Shown one piece after another: positions 17,215-50,597 of a DNA stretch of 64,000 nt. The notes under the pieces are model-generated. The model ran no database searches, was not told the DNA's origin, and worked only from the letters and a program-made list of their open reading frames with translations. Position numbers and translations under genes: made by a program. The stretch is from assembly GCA_019912885.1 (NCBI GenBank), contig JAIOHV010000203.1, forward strand, positions 1,885 to 65,884, read 5' to 3'. This DNA comes from a bacterium (GTDB taxonomy: Bacteria; Lernaellota; Lernaellaia; JACKCT01). Positions within the stretch are counted from its first letter, which is position 1. Every line of letters starts with the position of its first letter.

Positions 17215-18132
17215 GTGCGTATCGTGATCGCCATCTTCACGTGGATTTTCACGCGGCCGTCGTGGGAGCGCTCCGAGATCTGGGGCGAGCGGATCGGCCG
17301 GCTTATGTGGCGGGTCGGCATCCGCAAGCGCGTCGTCATGGACAATCTTCACCTGGTATTCGCCTCCGATACGACGCCCGAGGGCCATCGAAAAGACGAC
17401 GCCGAGCTCGCCGCGATCTGCCGCGCGGTGTACGAAAACCTCGGCCGTCTCATCGTGCTCTATTTCCGCACCGACCTCATGGACGCGGCGTTTTTTCGCG
17501 ACCGCTTCGAGGCGGAGGGGATGGAACATCTGCGCGACGGAATCGCCAGGGGGCGCGGCGTTCTCGGCATCGGCATGCACTTTGGCATCCTCGATATCGC
17601 GATGGGCAAGGCCGCGCACGAGCTCGACGCGCCGATTACGCTCGTCGGCAAAAACATCAAGAATCCCGTCGTCAACAACTGGTTTATCGAATCGCGCCGG
17701 CGCATGCGTTTCGATACGGTCGGCCCCAAGGACACACGCCAGGAAATTCTGACGCGGCTTGGCCGCAACGAGCTTGTGACGATGGTGCTCGATCAGAGCA
17801 TGCGCGAGCGCTACGCGATTTACGTCAACGTCATGGGACGCCTGACCGCGACAAACAAGTCCGCCGCCGGGCTTGCGCGCGATTCCGGAGCGACGGTCGT
17901 TCCGGGCTGGGCGTATCGCGTCGGCCCCGCGCGCTACCGCCTGGTCGCCCAGCCGCCCATCCCGTACATCACGCATGACGACCCCGACGAGGAGCGGCGG
18001 CTCAACACGCAGGCGTACGTCGAACGCCTGGACGCGGCGATCCTCGAGAATCCGGAGCACTGGTTCTGGCTGCACCGAAGGTGGAAGCGGGTAAAGGAGA
18101 TCGAGGATCGAAAATCGAAGATTGAAGATTGA
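17215..18132 (+). CDS. Lipid A biosynthesis acyltransferase, LpxL/HtrB (lauroyl/myristoyl) family
   Basis: GTG start; 305 aa; matches the general LpxL-family layout (N-terminal anchor, ~300 aa). The extreme C-terminus KEIEDRKSKIED is encoded by a heptamer repeat element. Confidence 0.65.
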   Translation: MRIVIAIFTWIFTRPSWERSEIWGERIGRLMWRVGIRKRVVMDNLHLVFASDTTPEGHRKDDAELAAICRAVYENLGRLIVLYFRTDLMDAAFFRDRFEAEGMEHLRDGIARGRGVLGIGMHFGILDIAMGKAAHELDAPITLVGKNIKNPVVNNWFIESRRRMRFDTVGPKDTRQEILTRLGRNELVTMVLDQSMRERYAIYVNVMGRLTATNKSAAGLARDSGATVVPGWAYRVGPARYRLVAQPPIPYITHDDPDEERRLNTQAYVERLDAAILENPEHWFWLHRRWKRVKEIEDRKSKIED

Positions 18133-18176
18133 ACGGAACGCGAGCGTGAATTCTTCAATCCTCGATCTTCAATCTA
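18097..18176. repeat. GAGGATY-heptamer palindromic (REP-like) element, copy A, between the convergent acyltransferase and lptG
   Basis: gagatcgaggatcgaaaatcgaagattgaagattgaa / loop / ttcttcaatcctcgatcttcaatcta; the arms are reverse complements; it overlaps the stop of the acyltransferase. Confidence 0.7.
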
Positions 18177-18185
18177 CAATATTGC

Positions 18186-19271
18186 CTACTGCCTGACTTT
18201 CACCAGTCCCACCAATCCCCCAAGTCCGAATATCACGTGGCTGCCCCAGGCGGCGGCGACAGGCGGCAGGGCGCCGGATTTGCCGAGCGCAAGGCCAAGG
18301 CCGAGCACGATCCAGTAAACGACGCCGATGACGACGGCGATGCCGACTCCAAGCGCGATGCCGCCGGAACGGCCGATCCGCACGGCGAACGGCACGCTGA
18401 GCATCGCCATGATGACGGGCACGAGCGGAAACGCGAGCTTGCCCTGCATGTCCACGCGATAGGACGTGGTGTCGTAACCCTTTTCCTCCAACTCGCCGAC
18501 AAGCGCGGCCAGTTCGCGGTAGCTCATCGTCTCGGGGTCTTTCTGATAGATCTTCATCTCCTCGGGCGTTTCGTCGAGATCGATCGCAAGCGTCTCGAAC
18601 GGGGTGGACGACGCGATGCGGCCTTCCGCGAATCGCCACGCAACACCGGACACCAGCTCCCAGTGATCGCCCGCGTAGCGCGCCGTTTCGGCGATCGCGC
18701 GCTCGGCCAGGTGAAAATTTTCGTCGAAGCGATACAGGCGCACGTCGCTGATCTTGCCCTGTTCCGGGACAAACAGGCCGAACGAATAGATGGTCTCCCC
18801 GCTTTTGTAATAGACGTTCTGCTTGCGGTATTTGACGCGCCAGACCTGTTTTTTGATTTGCACCTTGTAGATGTATTCGCGCGTCTCGTTCGCGCGCGGC
18901 ACGACGTATTCGTTGATCAGGAACGCGCCGCCGGAAATCAACGCGGACAGTGCGAGAATCGGCGCGCAGGCGCGCAGGATCGGCACGCCGCCGGCCTTGA
19001 TCGCGGTGATCTCGCTGCCGCGCGCAAGGCCGATGAGCGAAAGCAGCGCGCCGAGCAGGCACGCCACGGGCACGATCTGAAAAAGAATCAGCGGCATCTT
19101 GTAGAGGAAATAGAGAGCCACCGCCGTAAGGGGGGGATCGCTCTTGAAAATCTGGCTCGACCGCTCGATGAAATCGACGACGATGTAGATGACGACAAAA
19201 CCCGAAAGGCAAAGCGCGAACATGCGCGCGAATTGCGCGCCGATGTAGCGATCGAGCACGCGAAGGCGCAT
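18186..19271 (-). CDS. lptG: LPS export ABC transporter permease LptG (YjgP/YjgQ family)
   Basis: ATG (MRLRVLDRYIGAQFARMF) overlaps the lptF stop (TGATG); 6 TM plus a periplasmic beta-jellyroll. Confidence 0.8.
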   Translation of the reverse strand: MRLRVLDRYIGAQFARMFALCLSGFVVIYIVVDFIERSSQIFKSDPPLTAVALYFLYKMPLILFQIVPVACLLGALLSLIGLARGSEITAIKAGGVPILRACAPILALSALISGGAFLINEYVVPRANETREYIYKVQIKKQVWRVKYRKQNVYYKSGETIYSFGLFVPEQGKISDVRLYRFDENFHLAERAIAETARYAGDHWELVSGVAWRFAEGRIASSTPFETLAIDLDETPEEMKIYQKDPETMSYRELAALVGELEEKGYDTTSYRVDMQGKLAFPLVPVIMAMLSVPFAVRIGRSGGIALGVGIAVVIGVVYWIVLGLGLALGKSGALPPVAAAWGSHVIFGLGGLVGLVKVRQ

Positions 19272-20476
19272 CAGCGCTCCGGCCGCGTGCCGGCCCGGCG
19301 GCGAAACAGACCGCGCACCCGCGCGGCGGCGCGCACGATGGCGGCCAGGAACCACACCTCGCGATCCTCGCTTTTTCGCCAGAGCAGATAAAAACCGATC
19401 GCGGCAAACAGCGCGTTCGGCGCCCACATCGCGACAAACGGATGCACCACGGCTTTCCATCCGAGATTCTCGCCGACGCGGAACATGAGGTAGTAGAGGC
19501 AAAGCGCGACGATGGCGAACGTGAACCCCTGCCCGCGGCCCGAGCGGGGCGGCACGACGCCAAGCGGCATGCCGATAAGCCCGAACACGACGCACGCGAA
19601 CGGAAACGCGAACCGGCGGTGATACTCCACCCAGGCGCGGCGCATTTCGCGCTCGTCCTCGCCTTCTTGACGAAGCCGGGCGACGTGCTCTTTCAGGTCG
19701 CCGACCGACATTTCGAGATACGACCGCTCGGGCGCGTCGGCGGAAAACGATCGCGACACGTCGATCGCGACATCGTACTTCGAGAAGGTCGCCTGCTCGT
19801 AGGCGCGTGGATCCTTCATCGTGCGATGGACCGCGCCGTCCGTCAGGCGGATGACGAGCGTCGCCTCCTTGTCCTCGGCCGCGGCGACGCGCCCCTTGCG
19901 CGCAACGATGATGTTCGGCGCTTCCGGGATGCGTTCGTCGAAGATGAAGATGCCGTCGAGTTCGTTCTTCTTTTTGTCCACCTCCTCGACGTAGATGACG
20001 AAATCCTCGAACCGATCCTGAAACACGCCCGCGGCAATGCCGAGCGTCGCGTGCTTGCGGCCGGTTTCGATCAGCATCTCGCGGAATCGTTCCTTCCCCC
20101 AGGATTCGGCCTTCAGCGTCATGACGGCCGTCGCCGCGCCGACCGCGAGCGACAGCGCGAGAATGGGCGGATAGATGCGCGTCAGGCTCACGCCCGCGGC
20201 CTTGAGGGCCACGAGTTCGGAGTCGGACGACATTCGCCCGACCGCCAGGATCACGGCGAGGAGGTACGCCATCGGCAACGTAAAGACGAAAAACGGAGGC
20301 AGGATGTAAACAAGGACAAGGAACACGTCGGTCACGGCGATGCCGTATTGCACGACCATCTCCGTGATCTTCAGGATCTGGAACATGAGAAGGACGAAGG
20401 TGAAAATCACGACGCCGAGGATAAACGGAACGAGCACCTCGCGCCCGACGTAACGATGCACGATCCTAAGCGACAT
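19271..20476 (-). CDS. lptF: LPS export ABC transporter permease LptF (YjgP/YjgQ family)
   Basis: MSLRIVHRYVGREVLVPFILGVVIF; paired with lptG. Confidence 0.8.
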   Translation of the reverse strand: MSLRIVHRYVGREVLVPFILGVVIFTFVLLMFQILKITEMVVQYGIAVTDVFLVLVYILPPFFVFTLPMAYLLAVILAVGRMSSDSELVALKAAGVSLTRIYPPILALSLAVGAATAVMTLKAESWGKERFREMLIETGRKHATLGIAAGVFQDRFEDFVIYVEEVDKKKNELDGIFIFDERIPEAPNIIVARKGRVAAAEDKEATLVIRLTDGAVHRTMKDPRAYEQATFSKYDVAIDVSRSFSADAPERSYLEMSVGDLKEHVARLRQEGEDEREMRRAWVEYHRRFAFPFACVVFGLIGMPLGVVPPRSGRGQGFTFAIVALCLYYLMFRVGENLGWKAVVHPFVAMWAPNALFAAIGFYLLWRKSEDREVWFLAAIVRAAARVRGLFRRRAGTRPER

Positions 20477-20593
20477 GGCGCGCGAGTCTAGGCGCTTTTC
20501 CCGTACGCGGAAAGAAAGCGCGGGCCGCGCGCCGGATCAATTGCCCGCGGCGCGAGGCGCGGCGATAATGGCGCGCCACTTCCCCGGGATTTC

Positions 20594-21604
20594 ATGAGCC
20601 GTCCGTCGTTTTTTCACCGCATTTGGCGCAACCGCCGAAACCTGTTGATTCTCGCCGGGTGCGTCGTTTTTCTGGAGATCGTGTTGCGTTTCGTCTTTCC
20701 CGTTCAGGACGAGACGTATTTCTATCGCCGTCCCGGCGACGACAATTACGTCGAGGACCGCGAACTGTTCTGGGTGCCCGGAGATCGTTATGCGTCGCAA
20801 TGGAGCGTTGTCGACGCGACGCCCGCCGCGAATCTGATCTACACGTTCGGCGGGTCGATCGCCACGGAATGCTGCGGGGCCACCACGAATTTCAGCCGGA
20901 TCGTCGACGAAAAGCTGCCGGACTTTCGCGTGGCGAATATGGCCACCGCGGGATTTACGTCGTTTCAGTCGCGCCGCCTGCTTGAACGCGCGTTCAAACG
21001 CAAGCCGGCGCGCGTCACGTTGTTTTGCCACGCGTTCAACGACATGGGGCCCGCCTACCATACCGACAAGGAAATGTGGATTCGCAATCAGCGGTTCTCG
21101 ACAAAGGCCCAGTGGTTTCTCATGCGTTTGAAAACCCTGGCGTTGCTGCGTCGCGGGATTCGCGCCGCGCGCGGGTTTGATCCCTACGCCGGCGATCCGC
21201 GGCCGGCGCGCGTGACGCCCGCGGAATATTGGGAAAACCTCGCCGGCGCCGCCAAACACGCCACACGGTTCGGCGGACGGGTCGTCTTTGTCACGCAGGG
21301 GTACGCGGACGCCTATTCCAATCGCGCCGCCGAGCCTTATTTCAAGGAAATGCGGCGGATCGCCGAGGCGATGGATCGCGTGGAATTCATGGACGTGCGC
21401 CCGGTGATCGAGGCGCGGATCGTGGAGAAATTCGGCGCGGTGCCCGAGCTTTACGATTTCAATCGGCTGGCCGTGCACACCGACTATTGCCACCTCACCG
21501 ACGAAGGCCACGCTCTCGTTGCCGACTTGATCGTCTCGTTCTTGCGCGCCAAGGGCTACGCGCGGCCGGCGACGCCGACGAATTCCTCGCCCGGAGCTTC
21601 GTGA
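20594..21604 (+). CDS. Membrane-anchored SGNH/GDSL-type hydrolase (paralog 1)
   Basis: N-terminal TM; block I TFGGSIATECCGA; C-terminal D-x-x-H (CHLTDEGHALV). Confidence 0.55.
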   Translation: MSRPSFFHRIWRNRRNLLILAGCVVFLEIVLRFVFPVQDETYFYRRPGDDNYVEDRELFWVPGDRYASQWSVVDATPAANLIYTFGGSIATECCGATTNFSRIVDEKLPDFRVANMATAGFTSFQSRRLLERAFKRKPARVTLFCHAFNDMGPAYHTDKEMWIRNQRFSTKAQWFLMRLKTLALLRRGIRAARGFDPYAGDPRPARVTPAEYWENLAGAAKHATRFGGRVVFVTQGYADAYSNRAAEPYFKEMRRIAEAMDRVEFMDVRPVIEARIVEKFGAVPELYDFNRLAVHTDYCHLTDEGHALVADLIVSFLRAKGYARPATPTNSSPGAS

Positions 21605-22623
21605 TCGGCGCCTCGCTCGAAACGCCCACGGCCCGCCGGCGACGCGGATGGCTCATCCTCGCCGGAGTCGTGTTCATGCTGGAGTTTGCGTTGCGCGTGA
21701 TTTTTCAGGGAGCCGATGACACCTATTTCTATCGAGAGCGCGGCGACTCGGGATACCGGGAGGATCGTGAATTGTTTTGGGTGCCTCGAGACCGGTACGC
21801 GTCCCAATGGCGCGTCGCCGATCAAACACCGGCGGATTCCCTGATTTACACGTTCGGAGGATCGATCGTCACCGACTGCTGCGGGGCCACGACGAACTTC
21901 AGCCGCATGGTCGACGAACGGCTCCCCGGGTGGTCGGTGGTCAACTTCGGTACCGTCGGTTTCACGTCATTCCAGTCCGCTCATTTGCTGGACCGCGCGT
22001 TTACCCGCAAACCCGCGCGCCTCGTGTTTTTCTGCCACGGATTCAACGACATCGGGCGCGGATTCGCCGCCGACCGGCGGATGTATGCTCGCAATCAGCG
22101 GCATGCGACGTGGTTTCAGTGGCTGCTGATGCGTTCGAAGATCCTCGCGACCTTTCGGCGTGGCCTGCGTGCCGCGAGCGGATTCGATCCGCACGCGGAC
22201 AATTCGTCGCGACCGTCACGCGTATCCCTCGAAGACTTTTTGGAAAATCTGACCCACGCGGCCACGCGGGTCGCCCAGTCCGGCGGGCAAATCGTGTTCA
22301 TCACGCAAGCATTTCCCGACGCCCATCGGAATCGAGAGGTGGCCCCGTATTTCGCGGCCATGAAAACCGTCGCCGCGAGCGTCGATGGAGCGATGGTGCT
22401 TGATGTTCGCCCGTCCATCACCGCAAGGATCGAGGAGGCCTTCGGCGACGTACCGGAGTCTCTCACCCCGGGCCGACTGCACATGCACACCGACCTTTGC
22501 CACCTCACCGACGAAGGCCACGCTCTCGTTGCCGACTTGATCGTTTCATTCCTGCGCGCCAAGGGCCTCGCGCGGCCCGCGGCATCAGCGCCGCGAACAG
22601 GGACGCCCGAACCGCGACCCTAA
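21601..22623 (+). CDS. Membrane-anchored SGNH/GDSL-type hydrolase (paralog 2, tandem duplicate)
   Basis: GTG overlaps the paralog 1 stop; same motifs (TFGGSIVTDCCGA; CHLTDEGHALV); a near-identical ~65-nt 3-prime block is shared with paralog 1. Confidence 0.55.
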   Translation: MIGASLETPTARRRRGWLILAGVVFMLEFALRVIFQGADDTYFYRERGDSGYREDRELFWVPRDRYASQWRVADQTPADSLIYTFGGSIVTDCCGATTNFSRMVDERLPGWSVVNFGTVGFTSFQSAHLLDRAFTRKPARLVFFCHGFNDIGRGFAADRRMYARNQRHATWFQWLLMRSKILATFRRGLRAASGFDPHADNSSRPSRVSLEDFLENLTHAATRVAQSGGQIVFITQAFPDAHRNREVAPYFAAMKTVAASVDGAMVLDVRPSITARIEEAFGDVPESLTPGRLHMHTDLCHLTDEGHALVADLIVSFLRAKGLARPAASAPRTGTPEPRP

Positions 22624-22659
22624 GGAACGGGGTAGCCCCGCGCCGACACGATCCGCGTC

Positions 22660-23484
22660 TCATTCGCCAAGATCCACCGCATCGAGTTCCCGCGCGATGT
22701 CGATATCGCCCGTGTAGACCTTCCGCGCTCTGGCCAGAAACTCGTCTGGGTCCGCGGCGGGCGCCAGGTGCGTCAGGCGCACGCGTTTCGCATTCGCGGC
22801 AGCGGCCGCCTCGCCCGCCTGCTCGGGCGTCAGGTGCATGGGATACGCGCCGGTCGTACCGGCTTCGCAAATGAACAGATCCGCGTCGCGCGCCAGCTCG
22901 ATGAGCGCGTCGCACGGCCCGGTGTCGGCGGAAAAGGCGATCACGGCGCCGCCCGACTCGATGCGGTAGCCGAAAGTCGGATCGCGATGCGAAACCGCGT
23001 GCGGCGTGACGCGGCATCCCGCGATATCCACCGCCAAATTCGGCGCAAGTTCCCGGATGTCGAGCGCCGGAATCTCATCGAGAAGATCGGGATCGCCGAA
23101 CTTCGGGAGCAGCGCGACAAGCCCGGCGATTCCCGGCGGCCCCGCGATCGTCATCGGCGCCGTTCTCATTTTCGTGACGCGCAGAGCGAAGAAAAACGGC
23201 AGCAGACCGGCGACGTGGTCGGGGTGCGTGTGCGTGACGAGGATCGCGTCCACGCGCTCGATCGGCACGTTCGCCCCGACAAGCCGCCGAACCGCGCCTT
23301 CGCCGCAATCGACCAGCAACGCGCCGCCCGCGGACTCGACGAGCGTCGCCGGCCCCGCCTTGTCCGCCTCGGGAAACCAGGAGCCGACGCCAAGGAACGT
23401 GACGCGCAATCGGAGCGAATCGCCCTGGCTTTCGCTTCGTCGTTCGTCGTGCAAATTCTCCCGCATATCGACACCCGATTGCAT
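22660..23484 (-). CDS. MBL-fold metallo-hydrolase (RNase Z/beta-lactamase-like)
   Basis: This is the C-terminal 274 aa of an 899-aa GC-artefact ORF; LVDCGEG, HTHPDH and downstream His/Asp motifs; start at ATG 23484 (MQSGVD). Confidence 0.7.
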   Translation of the reverse strand: MQSGVDMRENLHDERRSESQGDSLRLRVTFLGVGSWFPEADKAGPATLVESAGGALLVDCGEGAVRRLVGANVPIERVDAILVTHTHPDHVAGLLPFFFALRVTKMRTAPMTIAGPPGIAGLVALLPKFGDPDLLDEIPALDIRELAPNLAVDIAGCRVTPHAVSHRDPTFGYRIESGGAVIAFSADTGPCDALIELARDADLFICEAGTTGAYPMHLTPEQAGEAAAAANAKRVRLTHLAPAADPDEFLARARKVYTGDIDIARELDAVDLGE

Positions 23485-23814
23485 AAAGCCGTCATTCGCC
23501 GGTCCCGCCGCCGTGTACGCAATAATACATCCAGAATCTTCGCCGTCATGACTCCAAAAGCGGAGAATTGCAGCCCCATAGCGATCGGAGACGCGAAAAC
23601 GGCCGCGTTCACCTTTTTTGGGGGCATTCCTGTCGGCGCGAATCGCGACAAGAAGCGCGGCGGGACGGCAAACGCGGATCGATTGCACCCGAAGCGCCGA
23701 AAAGCGCCGATTCGCGGGGTTTTTTTCGTTGACACCCGCATTTGCGTGATTAGGTTTACGGCAGCCTGAACGGGCTGGGGATGAAATGACGATTGCAGGA
23801 TAGGAGAATCCCAC

Positions 23815-25719: not shown

Positions 25720-25777
25720 CGCATTGCCGATAACGGGCGAGCGGCGGCCGAACATCGGTCAACGCAAGGAGGACGCC

Positions 25778-26191
25778 ATGACGCGGGAATCGCAGGATCT
25801 GGTCGGGCTCACCAAGGAGCTTCAGCAAAAGATCCGCGCCCGTGTGACCGCCGCGGCGGGTATCGCCGCCGGCGCCGGAGGCGCGGACGAACCCGCGTGC
25901 GATGTCGTCGAGACGCCCGACGCGTATATCCTTGCCATCGAGTTTCCGGGCATCGATCCCGATAGCGTCGAGATCGACGTGAAGGATCGGACCGTGCGCG
26001 TCACGGCGACATCCAGGCCGGATGGGGTGAATCGCGAAACGCGGCAGGCGATCCGCGTCGATCGTGGCGCCGACAAGTGGGTACGTTCGGTGGAATTGCC
26101 GCAACAAGTCGAAGCCGGGACGGGTAAGCGTTCGTACGACAACGGCGTTTTACGCGTCACGTTGTCCAAGTCGGCGTCCGGCGGGCGCTGA
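25778..26191 (+). CDS. Small heat-shock protein, Hsp20/alpha-crystallin family
   Basis: AAGGAGG RBS; alpha-crystallin domain (AYILAIEFPGIDPDSVEIDVKDRTVRVTA...YDNGVLRVTLSK). Confidence 0.8.
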   Translation: MTRESQDLVGLTKELQQKIRARVTAAAGIAAGAGGADEPACDVVETPDAYILAIEFPGIDPDSVEIDVKDRTVRVTATSRPDGVNRETRQAIRVDRGADKWVRSVELPQQVEAGTGKRSYDNGVLRVTLSKSASGGR

Positions 26192-26229
26192 GCGAAAATT
26201 TCGCGCCCGGCCGCGAGCCGGAACGGGTC

Positions 26230-26260
26230 CGCGCCGGGGGTCGGCGCGGGCCATTTTGCT
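26230..26260 (+). terminator. GC-rich hairpin plus U-tract between hsp20 and the J-protein gene (attenuator or terminator)
   Basis: cgcgccg-ggggt-cggcgcg followed by ggccattttgcttg. Confidence 0.35.
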
Positions 26261-26287
26261 TGTGGGCCCATTGAGTTTGTGAACGAA

Positions 26288-27220: not shown

Positions 27221-27246
27221 CGCGGCGGCCAGGAGGAAAGCGTTTC

Positions 27247-41538: not shown

Positions 41539-41599
41539 GGGCGTGGGCGATGGCGGCGTTTGCGCCGTGCGGCGCGCGCTCCTATCATCACCACTTCAA

Positions 41600-43687
41600 A
41601 TGCGCAGACGTTTTCTTGTCCCCTTCGCGATCTTGCTGTTTACGGCCGGCGTGTTTCTCGCGGCGGCCGGCGCATCCGCGGTGTACACGATCGTCGAACA
41701 CGATTACCTCGGGCGCGAGTTGCCGAATGTCGCGCGCGGTGTCGTGCGCGCGCGGCTTTCCGCCTTTGTGATGCGCGGGATTCTCGCCGGGATCGCGATC
41801 GTCGCGTTCATGTCGATCGCGCGGCGCATCGCGAAGGATACCGTCCGGCGGCGCCGCGCCTTCGCCGCCTTTCCGTTCGCGCTGTCGTTTGTGCTCGCGG
41901 GCGTCGTGTTCGCGGTGACTCTCGTGATGCGCCACAACCTCGCCGGGCCACTGGCCTCGGAGCTGTCCGCGTTTGTCGTGCTTTCGCGCGTCATCCTGCC
42001 GATGCTGCTCGACCCGGTGACGCTGCCGCCGATGATCGTCGCCGCGGGGGCGCTCGTGGCGGCGACCGCGGCCTTCGCGCTTGCGACGCTGCTTGTCGCC
42101 TTGCCGATCGGGAGCCGGCTTGCCGGAAAGATTTCGAAATTCCGCAGGCGGAAGGAGATCCTTCGCTTCGCTCAGGATGACAAAGCGGCACGGGATGACA
42201 AAGCGGTGCGGGATGACAAAGCGGTGCGGGATGACAAAGCGGTACGGGATGACAAAGCGGTGCGGGATGACAACGCGGTACGGGATGACAAAGCGGTACG
42301 GGATGACCGTCGAAAGAAACGCCCATCGCGGGCGCCGTTCGCGCTTTTGATCGCGGGTGCGATTCTCGTCGGTGGCGCGATCCTGGCTTACGGCGCGGCG
42401 CGGCCCGTGACGCCCAACGACGGCGCGCCGGACATCATCCTTATCAGCATCGACACGCTGCGCCGCGATCACATGAGCCTGTACGGATACAAGCGCGAGA
42501 CGACGCCGAACCTCGATCGCCTGGCGCGCGATTCCGTGGTGGTGGACGAGCACATTTCGCACGCGCCCTGGACGCTTCCCGCGCACATGAGCATGTTCAC
42601 GGGCCTGCTCCCGTTCGAGCATGGCGTCGTTTCGATCGACCGGTCGCTCGACCCGAAAACGCCGGTGCTTGCCGAATCGCTGAAGGAGCGCGGATACGCG
42701 ACGGCCGCGTTCGCGACGAACTACCTGCTCAGCCCGCGCTACGGCTACGGATCGGGATTCGATTTCTACGTGCTGCGCGCGGACTTTCCCGCCGAGGACG
42801 CGGTGGATCGCGCCATCGAGTGGCTTGCGGCGACGCCGACGCCGGCGTTCGTCTTTCTGCATCTCTACGACACGCATTACCCCTACGCGCCGCGCGAGGG
42901 CTATCGCGGGCGCTTCGGCAGCAAGGGCGACGGCCTGGACGCGATCATGTCCGAGCCGTTTTTCACCTTCGCCAGGCAAGCGCGCGATTTTTCTCGCGGA
43001 GACGAGCGCAAGGTGCGCGCGCGCTACGACGAAGAAATCCTGGACGTTGACGATCACGTCGGGCGTCTTTTCTCGAAGATGAAGGGGTGGGGGCGATACA
43101 AAAACGCCTGGATCATCGTGACCTCCGACCACGGCGAGGAATTCAACGACCACGGCATGTGGGGGCATTCGATTTCGCTCTACGAGGAAATGGTGCGCGT
43201 GCCGCTGATCGTGAAGCCGCCCGAGGGCGGGTGCGCGGGCATCGTGATGACCGGCGCGCAGATCGCCCAGCGCGCCATTTACGACATCGTGCGCGCGGCG
43301 TCGTTCCTACCGCTCGGTGCACATCCGGATGTGCGCTGCGATACGGGCGCGCCGCGCATTCTGACGCAGTTCGCCGAGGAAAACGTGCTCGCGGAAAGCG
43401 AGGTCTTCGGCCCTCATCGATTCGGAGTACGCACGACGACAAAGAAACTCGTGGAGCCGATCGTATTTGATCTCGACGACTTCCGCGTGGAGCGCGGCCA
43501 CGAACTTTTCGATCTTAATCGCGATCCGAAGGAAAAGACGAACGTGTACGAACCGGGCGCGGCGCCCGCGCTCTCAGCGATCATCGACAAGGCCAATCAG
43601 GCGCTGAAAACGCGCACCGAAACCGGCGAGCGCGATCTATCGCCCGAGGAGCTGGAGCGACTGCGTTCGTTGGGGTATTTGCAATAG
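41600..43687 (+). CDS. Membrane-anchored sulfatase-like hydrolase/transferase (alkaline-phosphatase superfamily) with an in-frame DDKAVR x7 repeat linker
   Basis: N-terminal multi-TM domain; ILISIDTLRRDHMSLYGY and SHAPWTLPAHMSMFTG active-site region; IIVTSDHGEEFNDHGMWGH. Confidence 0.65.
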   Translation: MRRRFLVPFAILLFTAGVFLAAAGASAVYTIVEHDYLGRELPNVARGVVRARLSAFVMRGILAGIAIVAFMSIARRIAKDTVRRRRAFAAFPFALSFVLAGVVFAVTLVMRHNLAGPLASELSAFVVLSRVILPMLLDPVTLPPMIVAAGALVAATAAFALATLLVALPIGSRLAGKISKFRRRKEILRFAQDDKAARDDKAVRDDKAVRDDKAVRDDKAVRDDNAVRDDKAVRDDRRKKRPSRAPFALLIAGAILVGGAILAYGAARPVTPNDGAPDIILISIDTLRRDHMSLYGYKRETTPNLDRLARDSVVVDEHISHAPWTLPAHMSMFTGLLPFEHGVVSIDRSLDPKTPVLAESLKERGYATAAFATNYLLSPRYGYGSGFDFYVLRADFPAEDAVDRAIEWLAATPTPAFVFLHLYDTHYPYAPREGYRGRFGSKGDGLDAIMSEPFFTFARQARDFSRGDERKVRARYDEEILDVDDHVGRLFSKMKGWGRYKNAWIIVTSDHGEEFNDHGMWGHSISLYEEMVRVPLIVKPPEGGCAGIVMTGAQIAQRAIYDIVRAASFLPLGAHPDVRCDTGAPRILTQFAEENVLAESEVFGPHRFGVRTTTKKLVEPIVFDLDDFRVERGHELFDLNRDPKEKTNVYEPGAAPALSAIIDKANQALKTRTETGERDLSPEELERLRSLGYLQ
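42176..42310 (+). repeat. 18-bp tandem repeat x ~7.5 (GATGACAAAGCGGTRCGG) inside the sulfatase-like CDS; VNTR-like
   Basis: Near-perfect copies with G/A and C/T wobble at two positions; encodes (DDKAVR)n. Confidence 0.9.
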
Positions 43688-43752
43688 TGAGGAAAGAGAA
43701 AAGAGGAAAGAGGAAAGAGGAAAGAGGAAAGAGGAAGCAGGAAATAGGAAAG
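43688..43752. repeat. (GAGGAAA)n polypurine heptamer microsatellite between convergent genes
   Basis: gaggaaagagaaaagaggaaagaggaaagaggaaagaggaaagaggaagcaggaaataggaaag, directly after the sulfatase stop. Confidence 0.9.
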
Positions 43753-43778
43753 AACTACGGACCCCGCTTCCAGCCTCC

Positions 43779-44897
43779 TCAAGTTCCGAACGTCTTGTCG
43801 CAGATATCCACGATGCGTTCGGCGGAGTGGCCGTCGCCGTAAGGGTTCTTCGCCATCGCCATCGCGCGCCAGGCGTCGTCGTCATCCATCAGCGTCGTCA
43901 CCGCTTCGACGATGTCGGCTTCGTTCGTGCCGACAAGGCGAACGGTGCCGGCCTCGATTCCCTCGGGGCGCTCGGTCTTTTCGCGCATGACGAGCACGGG
44001 TTTGCCGAGCGACGGCGCCTCCTCCTGCACGCCGCCGGAATCCGTGAGGATGATGTGCGCGCGTTTCATCAGGTGGACAAACGGCGCGTAGTCGAGCGGC
44101 TCGATTAACCGGACGTTCGCGTGGCCGCCGAGGATCGCGTTCACCGGTTCGCGCACGTTCGGATTCAGGTGCACCGGGTACACGAACGCGGCGTCGGGAT
44201 AGCGGTCGGCAAGACTCGCGATGGCGCGGCCCATCGCCTGAAATGGCGCACCGAAGCTTTCGCGCCGGTGCGCGGTGATGAGCACGGTGCGCTCCGGCAG
44301 ATCGGCGAGCATCGGATCGTCAAACGAAAACGGGCGCGCGGCGACATCCAGCAGCGCGTCGATGACGGTATTTCCGGTGATGTGGATGGTTTCGGCCGGG
44401 ATGCCCTCGGAAAGCAGCGCGGCGGCCGATCGCGGTGTCGGCGCGAAGTGCAGCGACGCAAGCCGCGAGGTGAGCTGGCGATTGATCTCCTCGGGGAAGG
44501 GCGAATAGCGATCGTGCGTGCGCAGCCCGGCCTCGACGTGGCCGACGGGGATCCGCCGATGAAACGCGGCGAGCGCGCCGACGAAAGTGGTCGTCGTGTC
44601 GCCCTGGACGAGGACGAGGTCGGGCCTGGCCGCGTCAAAGGTGCTTCCCAACCCCTCGATGGCGCGGGCGACGATGCCATCGAGCGTCTGGTTCGCGCGC
44701 ATGATGTCGAGATCGGCGTCCGGCACGATGCCAAAAAGCGCCAGCACCTGGTCCAGCATTTCACGGTGCTGGGCCGTCACGGCGACGAAAACGTCAAACC
44801 GCTCCGGCCGGCGGCGCATCTGGGCGATGACGGGGGCCAGCTTGATGGCCTCCGGTCGAGTGCCGAAGACGACAGCGGCCCGGATTTTTTCCGGCAA
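43779..44897 (-). CDS. wecB: UDP-N-acetylglucosamine 2-epimerase (non-hydrolysing)
   Basis: VFGTRPEAIKLAPV, HVEAGLRT, TDSGGVQEEAPSLGKPVLVMRE; probable TTG start after GGAGG (the ORF track extends to 44966). Confidence 0.85.
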   Translation of the reverse strand: MPEKIRAAVVFGTRPEAIKLAPVIAQMRRRPERFDVFVAVTAQHREMLDQVLALFGIVPDADLDIMRANQTLDGIVARAIEGLGSTFDAARPDLVLVQGDTTTTFVGALAAFHRRIPVGHVEAGLRTHDRYSPFPEEINRQLTSRLASLHFAPTPRSAAALLSEGIPAETIHITGNTVIDALLDVAARPFSFDDPMLADLPERTVLITAHRRESFGAPFQAMGRAIASLADRYPDAAFVYPVHLNPNVREPVNAILGGHANVRLIEPLDYAPFVHLMKRAHIILTDSGGVQEEAPSLGKPVLVMREKTERPEGIEAGTVRLVGTNEADIVEAVTTLMDDDDAWRAMAMAKNPYGDGHSAERIVDICDKTFGT

Positions 44898-45017
44898 GGA
44901 GCCTCCCGGGTTGTTCGTCGATCGTAATCGCCCCAACGCCGGCCGGTCAACGAAATCCGGGGCCATTAAGTTATCTCACGATACGGGACGGAATTTTTCG
45001 TCATCGCGCGCGGGGGC

Positions 45018-45046
45018 TTGCAAAATCGTTGTGTTTTCCTTAGATA
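45018..45046 (+). promoter_or_regulatory. Candidate sigma70-type promoter upstream of the dksA-like gene (TTGCAA-N17-TAGATA)
   Basis: Spacing and hexamers match -35/-10 consensus; about 30 nt upstream of the ATG. Confidence 0.35.
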
Positions 45047-45074
45047 TCCCGTTCCCTGCCACCATAGATGGGAG

Positions 45075-45512
45075 ATGGAATCGAAAATGGGTGGACCGAG
45101 AAAAAAACCGGCGGATGAGCTTACCCCTGAAGAACTCGAGCGCTATTACTCGATTCTGATGGAAAAGCGCAACGAAATCGTATCAAAAGCCAAGCAGACG
45201 CTCGGTGACGGCGCCCTTTCGGGCGGAACGGCCGGCGACGAGGCGGATCAGGCCATGCACGCAAGCGAAGCGGCGTTGGCGTGGCGCCTTCTGGATAAAG
45301 ACCGCAAATTGCTCAAGGAAATCGAACACGCGCTCGCTAAGTTCGAGGACGGCGAATTCGGGTACTGCGAAGGCACCGGCAAGCTGATCGACCGCCGCCG
45401 CCTCGAGATTCGCCCGTGGACGCGCTATTCGGTCGACTACAAGGCGGAACTCGAAAAAGAAAAGCGCTCGCGGCGCGGCATCACCGGCACAAAAATCGAT
45501 ACGCTATTCTAA
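45075..45512 (+). CDS. DksA/TraR-family RNA polymerase-binding regulator with a degenerate zinc finger
   Basis: Coiled-coil N-terminus with acidic tip (GGTAGDEADQA); C-terminal ALAKFEDGEFGYCEGTGKLIDRRRLEIRPWTRYS matches the DksA C4 region but retains only one Cys. Confidence 0.6.
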   Translation: MESKMGGPRKKPADELTPEELERYYSILMEKRNEIVSKAKQTLGDGALSGGTAGDEADQAMHASEAALAWRLLDKDRKLLKEIEHALAKFEDGEFGYCEGTGKLIDRRRLEIRPWTRYSVDYKAELEKEKRSRRGITGTKIDTLF

Positions 45513-45541
45513 GTGTAGGAAAACACTTCGGAATATCGAAA

Positions 45542-45573
45542 GGCTCCGCCGAAAACGCGGGGCCTTTTTGTTT
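45542..45573 (+). terminator. Rho-independent terminator after the dksA-like gene
   Basis: ggctccgcc-gaaaa-cgcggggcc (G-U wobble) followed by TTTTTGTTT. Confidence 0.65.
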
Positions 45574-45753
45574 GGAGGATTGAGGATCGAGGATCGAGGA
45601 TTGAGTGTCCTCCAATCGCGTTCGAGTGCGTCGCCATCCGGTTCCGGCGGCAGACTTACCCGGCTTCCACTCGCGGTTCGCGACTTGCGGTTTGCTGAAC
45701 GTGAAGCGGCTTTGCGATTCCACTCGATCCTCAATCCTCAATCCTCTATCCTC
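45574..45753. mobile_element. MITE-like element (~180 bp) with ~33-bp imperfect terminal inverted repeats made of GAGGATY heptamers (copy B)
   Basis: ggaggattgaggatcgaggatcgaggattgagtg (45574-45607) versus cactcgatcctcaatcctcaatcctctatcctc (45721-45753); 113-nt unique core. Confidence 0.55.
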
Positions 45754-45756
45754 GCC

Positions 45757-46554
45757 TCAGATCAAATCCGCGAAGTCTCTGGAAAATCGGTGGAAAAACA
45801 CCCAGCCGATGATCGCGACCAACAAGGAGAGCGCGGAGAAGTAACTGAAGCCGTAGAGGTCCGGCACGACGTCGCCAAGCAACGCGGCCCGATAGAGGTT
45901 GACGAGCCACGTCAGGGGATTGAGATAGAAAAACGCCTTGATCGACTCCGGAACGAGCACGACCGGGAAAATGATCGGCGTGCCGAAAAACCAGAGCGTG
46001 AGGATCGCGGCGGTCAGCTCGCGGGCGTCCTTGTAGAACACCGTCACGGCGCTGACGATCATCGCGATGCCGAGGGTGAAAAGAAGCTGAAGCGGCCAGA
46101 TCGCGAACAAAAGCCCGAACATGACGATGGAAGGCGACTGACCGAGCGCGGCCAGGATGACGATAAAAACGATGAGCGCGACGATCTCGTGAAGGAACGC
46201 CCCCAGAACGCAACGCAGGGGCAGCATGATCTTCGGGAAGTTGACCTGTTTCACGAAATCCTTGTTTTCCATGATGACCATGGACGATCGCTGCACGGCG
46301 TCGGACAGGCCGATCCACGGCAGCATGCCGGCGAAAAGGAAGATGCCGTAGTTTTTCGGTCCGGCGTTGCCGCCGACGTTGACGTCGAGGATGTAGCCGA
46401 ACACGAGCACATAAAGCAGGATGAGCAGAAGCGGATTGATGACCGACCAGAAAAGGCCAAGGAAACTGGCGCCGTAGCGGTTGCGCAGATCCGCCCGCAC
46501 GAAACCCCAGAGGAGGTACTTCTGCCGGTAGAGCGATCGAAATTGTTCGAGCAA
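45757..46554 (-). CDS. ABC-2 type exporter permease (Wzm/KpsM-like, polysaccharide or teichoic-type export); no cognate ATPase adjacent
   Basis: 6 TM; ABC2_membrane signature; the position downstream where an ATPase would sit is occupied by the MITE-like element. Confidence 0.8.
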   Translation of the reverse strand: MLEQFRSLYRQKYLLWGFVRADLRNRYGASFLGLFWSVINPLLLILLYVLVFGYILDVNVGGNAGPKNYGIFLFAGMLPWIGLSDAVQRSSMVIMENKDFVKQVNFPKIMLPLRCVLGAFLHEIVALIVFIVILAALGQSPSIVMFGLLFAIWPLQLLFTLGIAMIVSAVTVFYKDARELTAAILTLWFFGTPIIFPVVLVPESIKAFFYLNPLTWLVNLYRAALLGDVVPDLYGFSYFSALSLLVAIIGWVFFHRFSRDFADLI

Positions 46555-46685
46555 ACGGCCGTCCTCGCCACGCGGGCCGCGAATGAGAGGCCCACCGTGC
46601 GTCTTGTTTACCCGAATCCGCCGCGCGCGCGAAGAGGCCGCGCGACGATCGGGCGATTTGACGTCGTTAATCGAAAGACGCGGCG

Positions 46686-48380
46686 GTGGGACGAGCTTTG
46701 AATCGGCGCCGGCCCCGGCTCGACGACGCGATCGCCGTTGCCGTCATCACCGCCGTCATGCTCGCCGCGAAAATCGCCGCCGGGCGATTTGCCGCCGTGC
46801 CGCTCGACGACTCCTGGAACTTCGTTCTTCCGCTGAAGCACTTTCTCGAAAGCGGCGTCCCCCGATTTGATTCGTTCAACTCCGCGGCGGCCGTTTTGCA
46901 TTTAGCCGCCGCGTGGCCACTCGCGAAGCTGTTTGGCGCATCGTTCCCGCTGACGGCCGCGTTAAACTTCCTGATCACCGCCGCGGCCGTTTACGCGGTC
47001 TATCTTCTTGCGCGCGTCGCGGGGGGGACCGCGCGGTTCGCGGCGATTGTCGCGCTTTGCGCCTTCGCCGCGCCGCCGGTTTTCGTCGTTGCGTTCACTT
47101 TCCAGAGCGATCCCGTATTTCTTCTCGTGGAGACGCTCGCGCTCGCGGCATTCGTCGATTACGCGCGAAGGCGGCGAACGGCGTCGCTCGCGGCGGCGTC
47201 GGTTTTCGCGGCGCTTTCGATCTGGGCGAAGATCCACGGGCTTTTTCTCGCGCCGGCGTTTATCGCCGTGCTCCTTGCCGTTGCCCAACTGCGAAAACGC
47301 ACACCGGCGTGGGCGTTCGCCGCGCTCGCCGCGCCGACGCTTGCGTCTTACGTCGCCTTTCGTCTGGCGAAGCCGTTTGTTCACCCGATCTCGACAACGC
47401 TCGACCAGAAGTCGGCCGAATTCGCTGAACGCCTGTTTTCGCCGTCCGTCTGGCTTGCGGACGGACCCTGGCGCGCCATTGTCGCAATCGCGTCGGCCGC
47501 GTTCTATTTCCTTCCTGCGATCGTCGCGATCCGGCGCGCGCGCGAGGAAGCGGCGGGAAAACGCGCGGCGCCCGCGCTCGTCGTCGCATCGCTCGCCGGC
47601 GCCGTGTTGGGGGGGATCATCGCGATCGTCCGCGCGCGAGGCGGATCCTGGGCGCTTGCGCCGAGCATGTTGACCAAGGCGCCGACGCTCGCGCCGATGT
47701 CGGCGTGGGGTTGGGTGTACGCGGGTGTTGCCGCGGGCGCGCCGATGCTTTTGTATTGGCTGTTAAAGACGCGTTCCGACGCTCCCGCCGCCGCACTTCC
47801 CGATGGCGGGAGGGGCGAGGGCCTTCGCATCGATCCGCTTGTCGCGATCGCGCTGATAGTGATTCTGTCCCAGGTTGCCCTCATGGTACCGATACGCTGG
47901 TTCATGGATCGCTATTTCATTGTGCTCGTTCCGCCGATGGCGCTTGGGGCCGTCGCCGCCGCCCGCGATCGGCGGATCGCGCTTGCTTTCGCGATCCCGA
48001 TTCTGCTCCTGATCCTGGCGCTGGATGTCGTGCGCGTCCGGCAGTATCGCGACGGCGCCGAATTGCGCTGGGCGATGGCCGACGCGATCGCGAAATCCGG
48101 CGTGCCGGTCGAGAACATCGACGGCGGGTACGAGTGGTTCGGGTGGCACAACTTCGAGGCCTGCGAAGCGCGCGGGCGGCGCGGGACACGCGCGCCGGGT
48201 GCATCGGCCTGGGTGGCGGAACTTTGCCCGGACCTCGCGCCGAATCACCACGTCACCTTTGAGCCGCCGCCCACCGGATGTGATATCATCGAGACGCGCT
48301 CCTATGGTGCGGGGCCGCTTCTCGGCGAGCGTCCGGCGTTTGCCTATCGTTGCGCGCCGCGGGAAACGAACGCCGGCTGA
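46686..48380 (+). CDS. GT-C fold membrane glycosyltransferase (ArnT/PMT-like)
   Basis: 564 aa, ~12 TM; acidic first periplasmic loop PLDDSWNFVLPLKHF; architecture matches ArnT/PMT_2 family enzymes. Confidence 0.5.
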   Translation: MGRALNRRRPRLDDAIAVAVITAVMLAAKIAAGRFAAVPLDDSWNFVLPLKHFLESGVPRFDSFNSAAAVLHLAAAWPLAKLFGASFPLTAALNFLITAAAVYAVYLLARVAGGTARFAAIVALCAFAAPPVFVVAFTFQSDPVFLLVETLALAAFVDYARRRRTASLAAASVFAALSIWAKIHGLFLAPAFIAVLLAVAQLRKRTPAWAFAALAAPTLASYVAFRLAKPFVHPISTTLDQKSAEFAERLFSPSVWLADGPWRAIVAIASAAFYFLPAIVAIRRAREEAAGKRAAPALVVASLAGAVLGGIIAIVRARGGSWALAPSMLTKAPTLAPMSAWGWVYAGVAAGAPMLLYWLLKTRSDAPAAALPDGGRGEGLRIDPLVAIALIVILSQVALMVPIRWFMDRYFIVLVPPMALGAVAAARDRRIALAFAIPILLLILALDVVRVRQYRDGAELRWAMADAIAKSGVPVENIDGGYEWFGWHNFEACEARGRRGTRAPGASAWVAELCPDLAPNHHVTFEPPPTGCDIIETRSYGAGPLLGERPAFAYRCAPRETNAG

Positions 48381-48435
48381 CAAACGCAAAACGCGTCTTG
48401 TTGGGAACATGGTTTTGTGCTAGTAACGCGCGCCT

Positions 48436-48468
48436 CGCGGGGACGAGTCCCCGCGTTTCGTCGTTTTT
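48436..48468 (+). terminator. Rho-independent terminator after the GT-C gene
   Basis: cgcggggac-ga-gtccccgcg followed by tttcgtcgttttt. Confidence 0.6.
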
Positions 48469-48482
48469 ACAAGGGAAAAAAG

Positions 48483-50564
48483 ATGGGTCTGCAAAACGTG
48501 AGAAATATCGGCATCGTCGCCCACATCGACGCCGGCAAGACGACCGTCACCGAGCGCGTTCTGTTCTTCACGGGCATGAAGCGCACGCTCGGCGAGGTTC
48601 ACGAAGGCACCGCGACGATGGACTTCATGAAACAGGAGCAGGAGCGCGGCATCACGATCGCGTCCGCGGCGATCTCGTGCAAGTGGAACGATGCGTCGAT
48701 CAACATCATCGACACGCCCGGGCACGTCGATTTCACGATCGAGGTCGAGCGCTCGATGCGCGTGCTGGACGGCATCACCTCGGTGTTCTGCGGCGTCGGC
48801 GGCGTCGAACCGCAGAGCGAGACGGTCTGGGGCCAGGCGGATCGCTACCGCGTGCCGCGCATCGCGTTCGTCAACAAGCTCGACCGGCCGGGCGCCGATT
48901 ACTTCGACGTCATCGCGCAGCTCAACGACCGGCTGGACGCGAACGCGATCGCGTTTCAGGTGCCGATCGGCAAGGAAGACGGGTTCATCGGCCTTATCGA
49001 TCTCGTGGAGATGAAGGCCATCACCTTCCCGGAAAAGCAGCGCGTCATCGGTGACATCCCCGACGAATACAAGGGCGAGGTGGAAACGCACCGGCAGGCT
49101 CTTCTCGAAAAGCTCTCGGAGTTCAACGACGAGATCGCCGAGCTGTATCTTGACGAGAAACCGGTTCCGACCGACCTCATCAAGCGCGTGACGCGCCACT
49201 GCGTGCAGCGGCTACTGCTGACGCCGGTTTTCGCGGGCGCGGCCTACAAAAACGTCGGCGTGCAGCTTCTGCTCGACGCGATCGTCGACTACCTGCCGTC
49301 GCCGCTCGATGCCGGCGCGATCACCGGATACGACATCGACGATCACGAGAAGACGCACATGCGTCATCCGACCGAAAACGATCCGTTCTCGGCGCTGGCC
49401 TTCAAGATCATCCACGATCCGTACGTCGGGCAGCAGACGTTCGTGCGCACGTATTCGGGCGTGCTGAAGGCGGGACAGCAGGTTTACAACGCGACCAACG
49501 GCAAGAAGGAGCGCGTCGGCCGCATCCTGCGCATCCGCGCGAAGGAACGCGAGGAGGTCGAGCAGGTCGGCCCGGGCGACATCGTCGCGCTGATCGGCAT
49601 GAAGGATACGCACACCGGCCACACGCTTTGCGATCCGGGGACGCCGATCCTTCTCGAGTCGCTGACGGTCCCGGAGACGGTCATCAGCGTGAAGGTATCG
49701 ACCGAGACGCAAAAGGACCTCGATAAACTGCACCAGTCGCTGCGCAAGATGGCGCTCGAGGATCCGTCGTTCCAGGTTCGCGTCGTCGAGCGCACGGCGG
49801 AGACCGTCATCGCCGGCATGGGCGAGTTGCACCTGGAGATCATCGTCGATCGCCTGAAGACGGATTTCGGGGTCGAGGCGAACGTCGGCGCGCCGTCGGT
49901 GGAGTATCGCGAAACCGTGACCGCCGAGTCGCAGCACGCCTACAAGCACGTCAAGCAGTCCGGCGGCAAGGGTCAGTTCGCGCATACGGTCATGCGCGTC
50001 GAGCCGAATCCCGGCGGCGGGTTCGAGTTCGTCGATCACATTACCGGCGGCTCGATTCCGCAGGAGTTCATCCCCGCGGTTCGTCATGGCATCGCGGACA
50101 CCATCAAAGCCGGCATTCTCGCGGATTATCCGGTCGTCGATGTGCGCGTCGTGCTGATCGACGGCAGCTTCCACGCGGTCGACAGCTCGGAAATGGCTTT
50201 CCGCACGTGCGCGTCGATCTGCTTCAAGGAGGCGTTCCGCCGCGCGAATCCCAAGCTGATGGAGCCGGTCATGGCGCTCGAGATCGCCACGCCCGACGAA
50301 CACATCGGCGACATCGTAGGCGATCTCAACCGCCGGCGCGGGCGCGTTCTGAACATGCGCCGCTATCGCGCGGGTTCGCAGAAGCTTTCGGCCGAGGCGC
50401 CGCTGATGGAGCTTTTCGGATACGCGACGACGCTTCGCTCGCTTTCCTCGGGCCGCGCGAACTACGCGATGGAAGTCGCGCGTTACGACGCCATGCCGGC
50501 CAAGTTGCAGGAGACGGTCCTGGAAGAGGCGCGCAAACGGATCGCCGCCGCGCACGGGCAGTAG
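48483..50564 (+). CDS. fusA: Elongation factor G paralog (EF-G2-like), solitary and outside any str operon
   Basis: [19 protein letters not shown]-motifs; 695 aa; not flanked by rpsL/rpsG/tuf. Confidence 0.85.
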
Positions 50565-50597
50565 GAGAGGATCGAGGATCGAGGATCGAGGATCGAA
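50565..50597. repeat. GAGGATC x4 heptamer tandem repeat (copy C of the GAGGATY family) immediately after the fusA stop
   Basis: gagaggatcgaggatcgaggatcgaggatcgaa. Confidence 0.85.

Follow-up and report, generated by a model that had tools for sequence, protein, structure and literature searches.

Records of intergenic heptameric repeats go back decades and come from cyanobacteria, Xanthomonas and genome surveys; the closest described cases are the (GGGAATC)n arrays of Xanthomonas and the (GGGGAYT)n arrays of Anabaena/Nostoc (Rehm et al. 2015; PMC4692102). Here we add one case, a set of GAGGATY arrays in a 64-kb stretch of DNA from a Lernaellota bacterium (hereafter the window: positions 1,885 to 65,884 of contig JAIOHV010000203.1, assembly GCA_019912885.1). 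These arrays occupy three loci, named A, B and C, which are heptamer simple sequence repeat (SSR) arrays and not transposon-derived repetitive extragenic palindromes (REPs), miniature inverted-repeat transposable elements (MITEs) or canonical terminators.

Rehm et al. reported ~186 arrays per Xanthomonas genome, mostly of four units, which they read as the minimum for a G-quadruplex (G4). In two Xanthomonas species, 89–93% of the repeats were intergenic, the 5' neighbouring open reading frame (ORF) was on average 28 nt away, and 90% lay between the same genes. The G-rich strand was the coding strand within 0–50 bp of a stop, and the 70–75 two-array cases of these two species were 'always' convergent, with few paired repeats in Anabaena. 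The Xanthomonas repeats were unlinked to mobile elements and differed in length between close species, and their function 'still remains to be elucidated' (PMC4692102); a 2022 preprint on Nostoc likewise gives the role of heptamer repeats as not yet worked out. As related in two later papers (PMC4679880, PMC4692102), Mrazek et al. (2007) found a general excess of heptameric long SSRs and proposed polymerase slippage as their source. MacGregor (2015; PMC4679880) described TAACTGA repeats, found in tandem sets of 2–6 with a scattered phylogeny and no evident means of spread, and raised the binding of cold-shock proteins to heptamers.

GAGGATY arrays at three convergent junctions

The three loci (Table 1) consist of tandem 7-nt units in 4.3–5.1 copies (Tandem Repeats Finder), within which GAGGATC, GAGGATT, GAAGATT and GAAAATC occur in phase. 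All three lie at convergent gene junctions according to Pfam assignments, an extragenic 3'-end position like that of REPs. The first-pass annotation of the window had noted GAGGATY heptamers at three gene 3' ends, and we recovered each of them in place. Allowing up to two mismatches, GAGGATYGAGGATY matched 19 times, whereas 100 shuffles averaged 2.1 matches and gave 8 at most. Perfect heptamer arrays with at least 2.5 copies were also in excess (five, against 0.11 expected from first-order Markov simulations), and all five were intergenic. The density of GAGGATY arrays is five per 64 kb. Heptamer arrays of other units, which the first-pass annotation had overlooked, occupy similar places in the window (GAGGAAA, GGAATGS with a degenerate copy, and AGAAAAG; Table 1).

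Locus A (18096–18176) makes up the whole 53-nt gap between genes for an LpxL-type acyltransferase (plus strand) and an LptF/G permease (minus strand), as identified with Pfam; the acyltransferase ORF runs into the repeat, with its TGA (18130–18132) inside the left arm. The partner arm had been described as a perfect inverted copy 17 nt away, a description that we correct to an imperfect one: the arms lie 9 nt apart and show 80% complementarity across 30 nt. When folded and compared with shuffles, the hairpin reached −29.6 kcal/mol on the plus strand (z = −3.1) and −35.9 kcal/mol on the minus strand (z = −6.5), where the RNA forms a 23-bp stem once G–U pairs are counted. At locus B, where dksA (plus) converges on an ABC-2 permease gene (minus; both by Pfam), the arms are 96% complementary over 24 nt and the whole element folds at −85.5 kcal/mol (z = −4.8) on the plus strand and −92.4 kcal/mol (z = −7.6) on the minus strand. 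Locus C lies where the gene for elongation factor G (EF-G; fusA) converges on a class IV aminotransferase gene (Pfam) and, as first noted, directly follows fusA without a partner. Strong hairpins on folding are thus a property of A and B, and not of C, which folds no better than shuffles (z = −0.5).

The end of fusA in the window (50562–50573) reads TAGGAGAGGATC. At loci fetched from other genomes, the array often begins with the stop codon, which forms part of a first unit with one mismatch (TAGGATY followed by GAGGATY; L008, L021, L057, L071, L077, L101 and L114), which suggests that an array may be seeded by its stop-codon context.

REPs are single imperfect palindromes of 20–40 nt with a conserved head (a tetranucleotide), and are mobilized by a Y1 transposase (IS200/IS605-like; REP-associated tyrosine transposase, RAYT) whose gene is usually flanked by REPs. 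A single GAGGATY arm has no self-complementarity, and the arms are tandem heptamers, not a 20–40-nt palindrome with a conserved head. Among the ~54 genes of the window, Pfam identified no Y1/RAYT or other transposase domain, which leaves the suggestion that the repeats are RAYT targets without support there. The tandem arms, the lack of a transposase in the window and the presence of unrelated heptamer units in like positions (Table 1) weigh against the REP/RAYT reading. From the initial comparison with REPs and bacterial interspersed mosaic elements (BIMEs) we retain that the repeats are dispersed, partly palindromic, located at gene 3' ends and strongly folded at two of three loci; the tandem arms speak against membership of either family.

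A MITE has terminal inverted repeats, is bordered by a target-site duplication and shares a conserved internal sequence with its other copies. Locus B had been called a MITE-like unit and it does have the inverted partner, across a 117-nt spacer, but no direct repeat is common to its flanks (..TTTGTTTG / element / GCCTCAGA..), or to those of locus A. Moreover, we looked across the window and 2.66 Mb of fetched loci for further copies of the A and B spacers, or of the DNA that follows C, and found none. We rejected the MITE reading on both counts, no target-site duplication and no conserved internal sequence. A known RNA family was also rejected, with no Rfam match in the window at gathering thresholds. 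Finally, an intrinsic terminator is a hairpin with a U-rich tract directly after it. The 3' arms of loci A and B are followed by CAATCTACAA and GCCTCAGATC, respectively, neither of which contains a U-tract, and in other genomes the 10 nt that follow contain five or more T in only 6 of 50 pairs. Because no U-tract lies beyond the hairpins, the terminator role proposed in the first-pass annotation is unsupported in its canonical sense.

Table 1. Heptamer arrays of the window and the terminators near them (window coordinates)
Feature	Position	Strand	Description
Locus A left arm	18096..18133	+	Degenerate array GGAGATC GAGGATC GAAAATC GAAGATT GAAGATT; period 7, 5.1 copies
Locus A right arm	18145..18176	-	Minus-strand reading GTAGATT GAAGATC GAGGATT GAAGAAT; begins 9 nt past the LptF/G-family stop (18186-18188)
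dksA canonical intrinsic terminator	45540..45572	+	GGCTCCGCC..GCGGGGCC + TTTTTGTTT; upstream of, and distinct from, array B; direct sequence reading
Locus B left arm	45575..45605	+	(GAGGATY) x4.4; begins 2 nt past the T-tract of the dksA intrinsic terminator
Locus B spacer	45606..45722		117 nt; unique within the window and among 2.66 Mb of fetched loci
Locus B right arm	45723..45753	-	(GAGGATY) x4.4; begins 3 nt past the ABC-2 permease stop (45757-45759)
Locus C	50567..50596	+	(GAGGATC) x4.3, all perfect; begins 2 nt past the fusA TAG stop; no partner arm
Canonical terminator hairpin, probably bidirectional	50675..50700		Between fusA and the aminotransferase gene; distinct from array C
GAGGAAA x9.3 array	43689..43753	+	Begins 2 nt past a sulfatase-family stop; gene converges on UDP-GlcNAc 2-epimerase; unpaired
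GGAATGS x4.7 array	13315..13347	-	53 nt past the tolQ/exbB-type stop (13401-13403); MotA_ExbB Pfam match
Degenerate heptamer array	50745..50779	-	ATGAATG CGGAGTG CGGAATG GAATCGC; directly past the aminotransferase IV stop (50780-50782); unit type as at 13315-13347
AGAAAAG x4.4 array	13240..13270	-	Purine-rich on the plus strand, pyrimidine-rich in tolQ-tolR transcript sense; ends 9 nt before the tolR/exbD start

Distribution, polarity and turnover across genomes

The first-pass annotation had taken the family to be specific to this genome. This did not hold, as (GAGGATY)3 occurs at 120 or more loci, from many phyla, in a one-per-species genome collection. Among the matches listed, carriers belong to the Acidobacteriota, Planctomycetota, Gallionellaceae, Burkholderiales, Bacteroidota, Verrucomicrobiota, Ignavibacteriota, Gemmatimonadota, Actinomycetota and cyanobacteria and include some isolates, and the copy number in genomes other than the source ranges from 3 to 11. 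Of the isolates, Paraburkholderia haematera LMG 31837 has 8 units (L086) and Pseudomonas sp. BGI-2 has 3 (L003). In viral contigs, we counted 16 stretches of (GAGGATY)3, compared to 51 and 11 of two composition-matched permuted heptamers. GAGGATY is therefore no commoner than arbitrary heptamers, so that we discarded the idea of a special cross-phylum family and read its distribution as part of a general heptamer-SSR background.

Heptamers were also examined relative to other periods. In 0.84 Mb of GAGGATY-bearing genomes, counting only DNA more than 500 nt from ascertained arrays, there were 32, 20, 73, 10 and 5 perfect arrays of at least 2.5 copies with periods of 5, 6, 7, 8 and 9, respectively, comprising many different units. 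In a less biased set, 1.09 Mb around EF-G homologues, the corresponding counts were 31, 39, 28, 4 and 1, with the heptamers concentrated in few loci. At two of these EF-G loci, the fusA stop is abutted by other units, TAG+(GACGTAR)9 in L149 and TAG+(GTGAAATG)6 in L147: the position after the fusA stop recurs and the sequence does not.

Many GAGGATY arrays lie within 100 nt of the contig ends of metagenome-assembled genomes (MAGs; L020, L022, L024, L031, L039, L063, L073, L079, L088 and L116). Contig-end arrays probably break short-read assemblies, implying many copies per genome in those organisms. Several of the fetched MAG loci contain two GAGGATY pairs within 8 kb.

Two rules hold regardless of the unit. 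The first is that arrays following a stop codon are G-rich and C-poor in the sense of the mRNA. Our view of the source genome is the 64-kb window, in which all eight post-gene arrays are G-rich on the sense strand of the gene; in seven cases the distance from the stop codon (for the left arm of B, from the terminator) to the array is at most 10 nt, and in the eighth it is 53 nt. For fetched loci, gene orientation was taken from a crude long-ORF heuristic, by which a long ORF ended between −23 and +15 nt of the start of a GAGGATY array on the sense side in ~47 cases compared to ~8 on the antisense side. Among arrays located 0–30 nt past an ORF end, whatever their unit, with ascertained units excluded and an ORF end on exactly one side, G exceeded C in sense in 54 cases and C exceeded G in 13 (p = 4e-7). 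Stop codons supplied by the unit in all three frames were rejected as the cause of this polarity, because the bias towards them is weak (23 versus 13) and because units without a stop triplet on either strand still have G>C in sense in 26 cases versus 6. A polarity independent of gene orientation was likewise rejected: arrays just upstream of start codons have none (11 versus 13, with noisy start prediction).

The second rule is that facing arrays of one unit put the G-rich arm first, on whichever strand they are read. Among the matches listed, 50 of 117 GAGGATY arrays are followed by an inverted partner within 250 nt (that is, G-first), none is preceded by one and the other 67 are unpaired. 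For pairs of other units, the 5' arm was G-rich in 29 cases, C-rich in one and tied in two. Combining all units across bacteria and phage contigs, the G-rich arm comes first in 79 pairs and second in one. A pair is not merely two independent post-stop arrays of convergent genes, because the ORF heuristic assigned pairs to tandem-like and to convergent junctions in nearly equal numbers (15 versus 16). We also rejected RNA-level selection acting through G–U asymmetry, since among 20 pairs to which a single direction of transcription could be assigned the more stable RNA was the sense strand in 10 and the antisense strand in 10.

Finally, we compared arrays between relatives. The closest non-identical EF-G relative (L278) has 76% identity, and most others have ~70% and are labelled Myxococcota or Deltaproteobacteria. 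L278 matches the window in G+C content and in gene order downstream of fusA, and its 22 kb contain no heptamer array; with the best relative this distant and free of arrays, comparison of orthologous junctions in close relatives was abandoned. At the fusA 3' end of L278 (12080–12125) there is a plain hairpin with a T-tract only, and fusA is separated from the class IV aminotransferase gene by an extra gene of 361 residues, which matches no Pfam family. In a closer comparison, the flanking genes of L140 and L147 are 91–96% identical and arrays are present in L147 only. One of these, (TCGTAAT)4, resembles a local ATCGTATG at the start codon of the next gene and looks like a local duplication of it. 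Based on their absence from L278 and L140 and on the ATCGTATG-like array of L147, arrays are gained and lost quickly and sometimes arise in place. From 64 kb of sequence, we infer that they are a fast-evolving, lineage-specific property of the source genome.

Proposed origin and function of the arrays

Our preferred reading, which we consider reasonably probable, is that the GAGGATY arrays are heptanucleotide SSR arrays of the Xanthomonas/Nostoc class that originate by slippage in situ and whose paired hairpins serve as 3'-end barriers. Arrays would be born and change length in place, through slipped-strand mispairing of the 7-nt unit in DNA that, from the stop codon onwards, is not translated. 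Slippage in situ is suggested by the tandem in-phase variants, the unrelated units in like positions and the fast turnover. Where arrays are paired, a transcript entering from either side is predicted to fold into a long hairpin without a U-tract, as it does in silico for A and B. Such hairpins would most likely act between convergent genes as a 3'-end barrier, a stabilizer or a read-through insulator, REP-like in effect and not in origin; judging from the predicted folds, a barrier function is plausible. Lone arrays, such as locus C and the GAGGAAA array (x9), may be nascent or decayed forms that have no structural role.

Several observations weigh against this reading. With regard to hairpin function, a U-tract beyond the 3' arm (at least five T in the next 10 nt) is found in only 6 of 50 pairs, arrays B and C coexist with ordinary terminators, the even split of sense and antisense stability among one-direction pairs (10 and 10 of 20) gives no sign of selection on the RNA, and the nearest relative does without the arrays. 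With regard to origin, slippage alone leaves unexplained the recurrence of one unit (at three loci of the window, and in two pairs per 8 kb elsewhere), the preference for 7 nt and the strict G-first polarity.

A serious rival is that the arrays are a functionless mutational expansion of unselected DNA and owe their polarity to a transcription-linked mutational bias. One candidate source is R-loop-prone, G-rich RNA past the point of ribosome exit, with the second arm copied by intrastrand template switching. Absence of arrays in the nearest relative and in L140 versus L147, normal terminators alongside arrays B and C, hairpins without a U-tract, RNA folding without strand asymmetry and unfolded lone arrays would all be expected of such a by-product, as would a polarity that is independent of the unit and undetected upstream of start codons (11 versus 13). 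We still lean against it, regarding it as possible and well worth keeping in view: the arms of the window pairs are matched in length (4.4 and 4.4 units at B), 90% of the repeats lie between the same genes in two Xanthomonas species (PMC4692102), and a purely neutral origin gives no obvious reason for one unit to recur in a genome. There is a smaller chance, which we put as low but not negligible, that the two unit-independent rules (G-rich in sense; G-first in 79 pairs versus one) reflect a directional process, so far unrecognised, that builds 7-nt arrays where translation and transcription uncouple, rather than slippage plus drift. What it might consist of is speculation. R-loops could make repeats expand on the G-rich strand that they displace, after which the second arm would be copied from a hairpin template. 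Alternatively, G-rich repeats could be added to both 3' ends of a break, giving a head-to-head polarity like that of eukaryotic telomere fusions. Any mechanism has to accommodate a polarity that does not depend on the unit, the complete lack of C-first GAGGATY pairs, the missing U-tract and the fast turnover between close relatives.

The remaining readings appear improbable to different degrees. REPs/BIMEs or MITEs with heptamer arrays as terminal inverted repeats, spread by a RAYT or other transposase encoded elsewhere in the genome, would fit the recurrence of one unit at three loci of the 64-kb window (in some MAGs, at several within 8 kb), the REP-like 3'-end position, the many arrays at contig ends that suggest many copies per genome, and the strict G-first polarity, which fixed terminal inverted repeats would give. 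We nonetheless consider this improbable. The window has no transposase among its ~54 genes, target-site duplications are absent and spacers unique, lone arrays are common (67 of 117 among the matches listed), and neither copy number nor unit sequence is constant within arrays; moreover, dozens of unrelated units have a like polarity, phage contigs included, permuted units are as frequent as GAGGATY, and Rehm et al. found the Xanthomonas repeats unassociated with mobile elements (PMC4692102). Still less probable is a role as multivalent binding platforms or non-B structures, in which GGA every 7 nt would titrate a CsrA-type protein, GAGG resembling a Shine–Dalgarno sequence would hold ribosomes, each heptamer would be bound by a cold-shock protein, or G-quadruplexes would form as has been proposed for GGGAATC. 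In the mRNA sense, every GAGGATY or GAGGAAA unit offers one GGA and one GAGG, ~4 units per array corresponds to the G4 minimum as read in PMC4692102, and cold-shock-protein binding to heptamers was raised in PMC4679880. Against this, units without GGA or GAGG (GTTGCTG, GTGATGC and GACGTAR) have the same polarity and pairing, and in paired arrays the motifs would be buried in the stem. GAGGATY itself has no run of three G, yet its arrays have the four-unit, paired, post-stop anatomy, so G4 formation is not the common cause of that anatomy. A unit that is unable to form a canonical G-quadruplex and has a like anatomy weakens what has been the leading structural hypothesis. Least probable of all, in our view, are Rho polarity elements, in which C-poor sense RNA would keep Rho off and C-rich antisense or read-through RNA would load it. 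Such elements would be consistent with the C-poverty of the sense strand past stops (54 versus 13) and with the C-rich arm always being second in pairs. In pairs, however, that arm would be sequestered in the stem. Cyanobacteria are not known to have Rho. Arrays of Anabaena/Nostoc nevertheless show a like anatomy (PMC4692102).

Other repeats and comparison with described systems

Based on Pfam, the ~54 predicted genes of the window form a normal chromosomal region, with Tol-Pal, dnaK-dnaJ-grpE, clpB, lipopolysaccharide and glycosyltransferase genes. The fold of its GAGGAAA x9.3 array was not significant (z = −1.4). In the tolQ-tolR gap, a small hairpin (13270–13286, minus strand) is followed by the CTCTTTT array as a U-rich tail; it appeared terminator-like in a terminator scan, and hairpin and array together could be an intra-operon attenuator. 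A second repeat family has a 9-nt unit, GTCCATCAT, present in 4.7 copies at 8667–8708, in the loop of an inverted repeat (8614–8641 / 8733–8760) at a convergent junction, and in 3.9 copies at 61742–61776, where sugar-modification genes on the minus strand flank it. The minus-strand form of the unit is ATGATGGAC, which is G-rich in sense past the upstream stop, as in the heptamer arrays. Another 9-nt periodicity (TTCTCCGTG x3) is found in an inverted pair at 17113–17184, with 27-nt arms that are 89% complementary and 18 nt apart, located in the divergent gap between an aminotransferase gene (15921–17135, minus strand) and the lpxL-type gene (17215, plus strand).

Within coding sequence, an 18-nt tandem repeat of 7.4 copies (GGATGACAAAGCGGTACG, 93% match) at 42175–42307 in the sulfatase-family gene encodes a six-residue repeat, and Asp-rich coding repeats occur at 14586–14633 and 15624–15756. 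A low-G+C island at 37266–38906 (~44%, compared to 63.6% for the window) coincides with a gene for an FG-GAP repeat protein (37340–38971, minus strand) and may have been acquired horizontally.

Compared with systems already described, the GAGGATY loci share with intrinsic terminators the stable hairpin just downstream of genes, and A and B fill or nearly fill their convergent gaps. They differ in having a U-tract in only 6 of 50 pairs, in stems that are lower in G+C than the genome, and in the ordinary terminators present at B and C. Proposed roles of REPs and BIMEs are those of mRNA 3' stabilizers or insulators. Like the REPs and BIMEs of Enterobacteria and Pseudomonas, the arrays are extragenic, often at 3' ends or in convergent gaps, and form hairpins without a U-tract; unlike them, they have non-palindromic tandem arms, a variable copy number, many unpaired members and no RAYT in the 64-kb window. 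The TAACTGA repeats of marine Beggiatoaceae, some Cyanobacteria and Bacteroidetes similarly place one intergenic heptamer at many loci per genome, but they lie mostly just upstream of start codons, contain stops in all frames and include only one inverted set (PMC4679880). The resemblance to the short tandemly repeated repetitive (STRR) sequences of Calothrix/Anabaena is closer in kind, in that these, too, are intergenic tandem heptamers with several units per genome, a lineage-specific abundance and a proposed origin by slippage. Their units differ, and the descriptions of STRR sequences and of the survey by Mrazek et al., as summarised in PMC4679880 and PMC4692102, do not stress pairing or stop-codon polarity.

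The Xanthomonas/Nostoc repeats (PMC4692102) match the GAGGATY arrays in their ~4 tandem 7-nt units, intergenic post-stop position, G-rich coding strand and frequent convergent inverted pairs that can form stem-loops. A direct tie to the Nostoc GGGGAYT unit is seen in fetched loci where GGGGATT units occur in phase with GAGGATT (for example, L030, L066 and L082). The Xanthomonas and Nostoc units contain runs of at least three G, whereas GAGGATY has only GG and can form no three-tetrad G-quadruplex, and its host is a high-G+C bacterium. The GG-only unit departs from the published G4 subtype and not from the SSR class. In annotation, such loci are best labelled heptamer SSR arrays or hairpins instead of REPs, MITEs or terminators.

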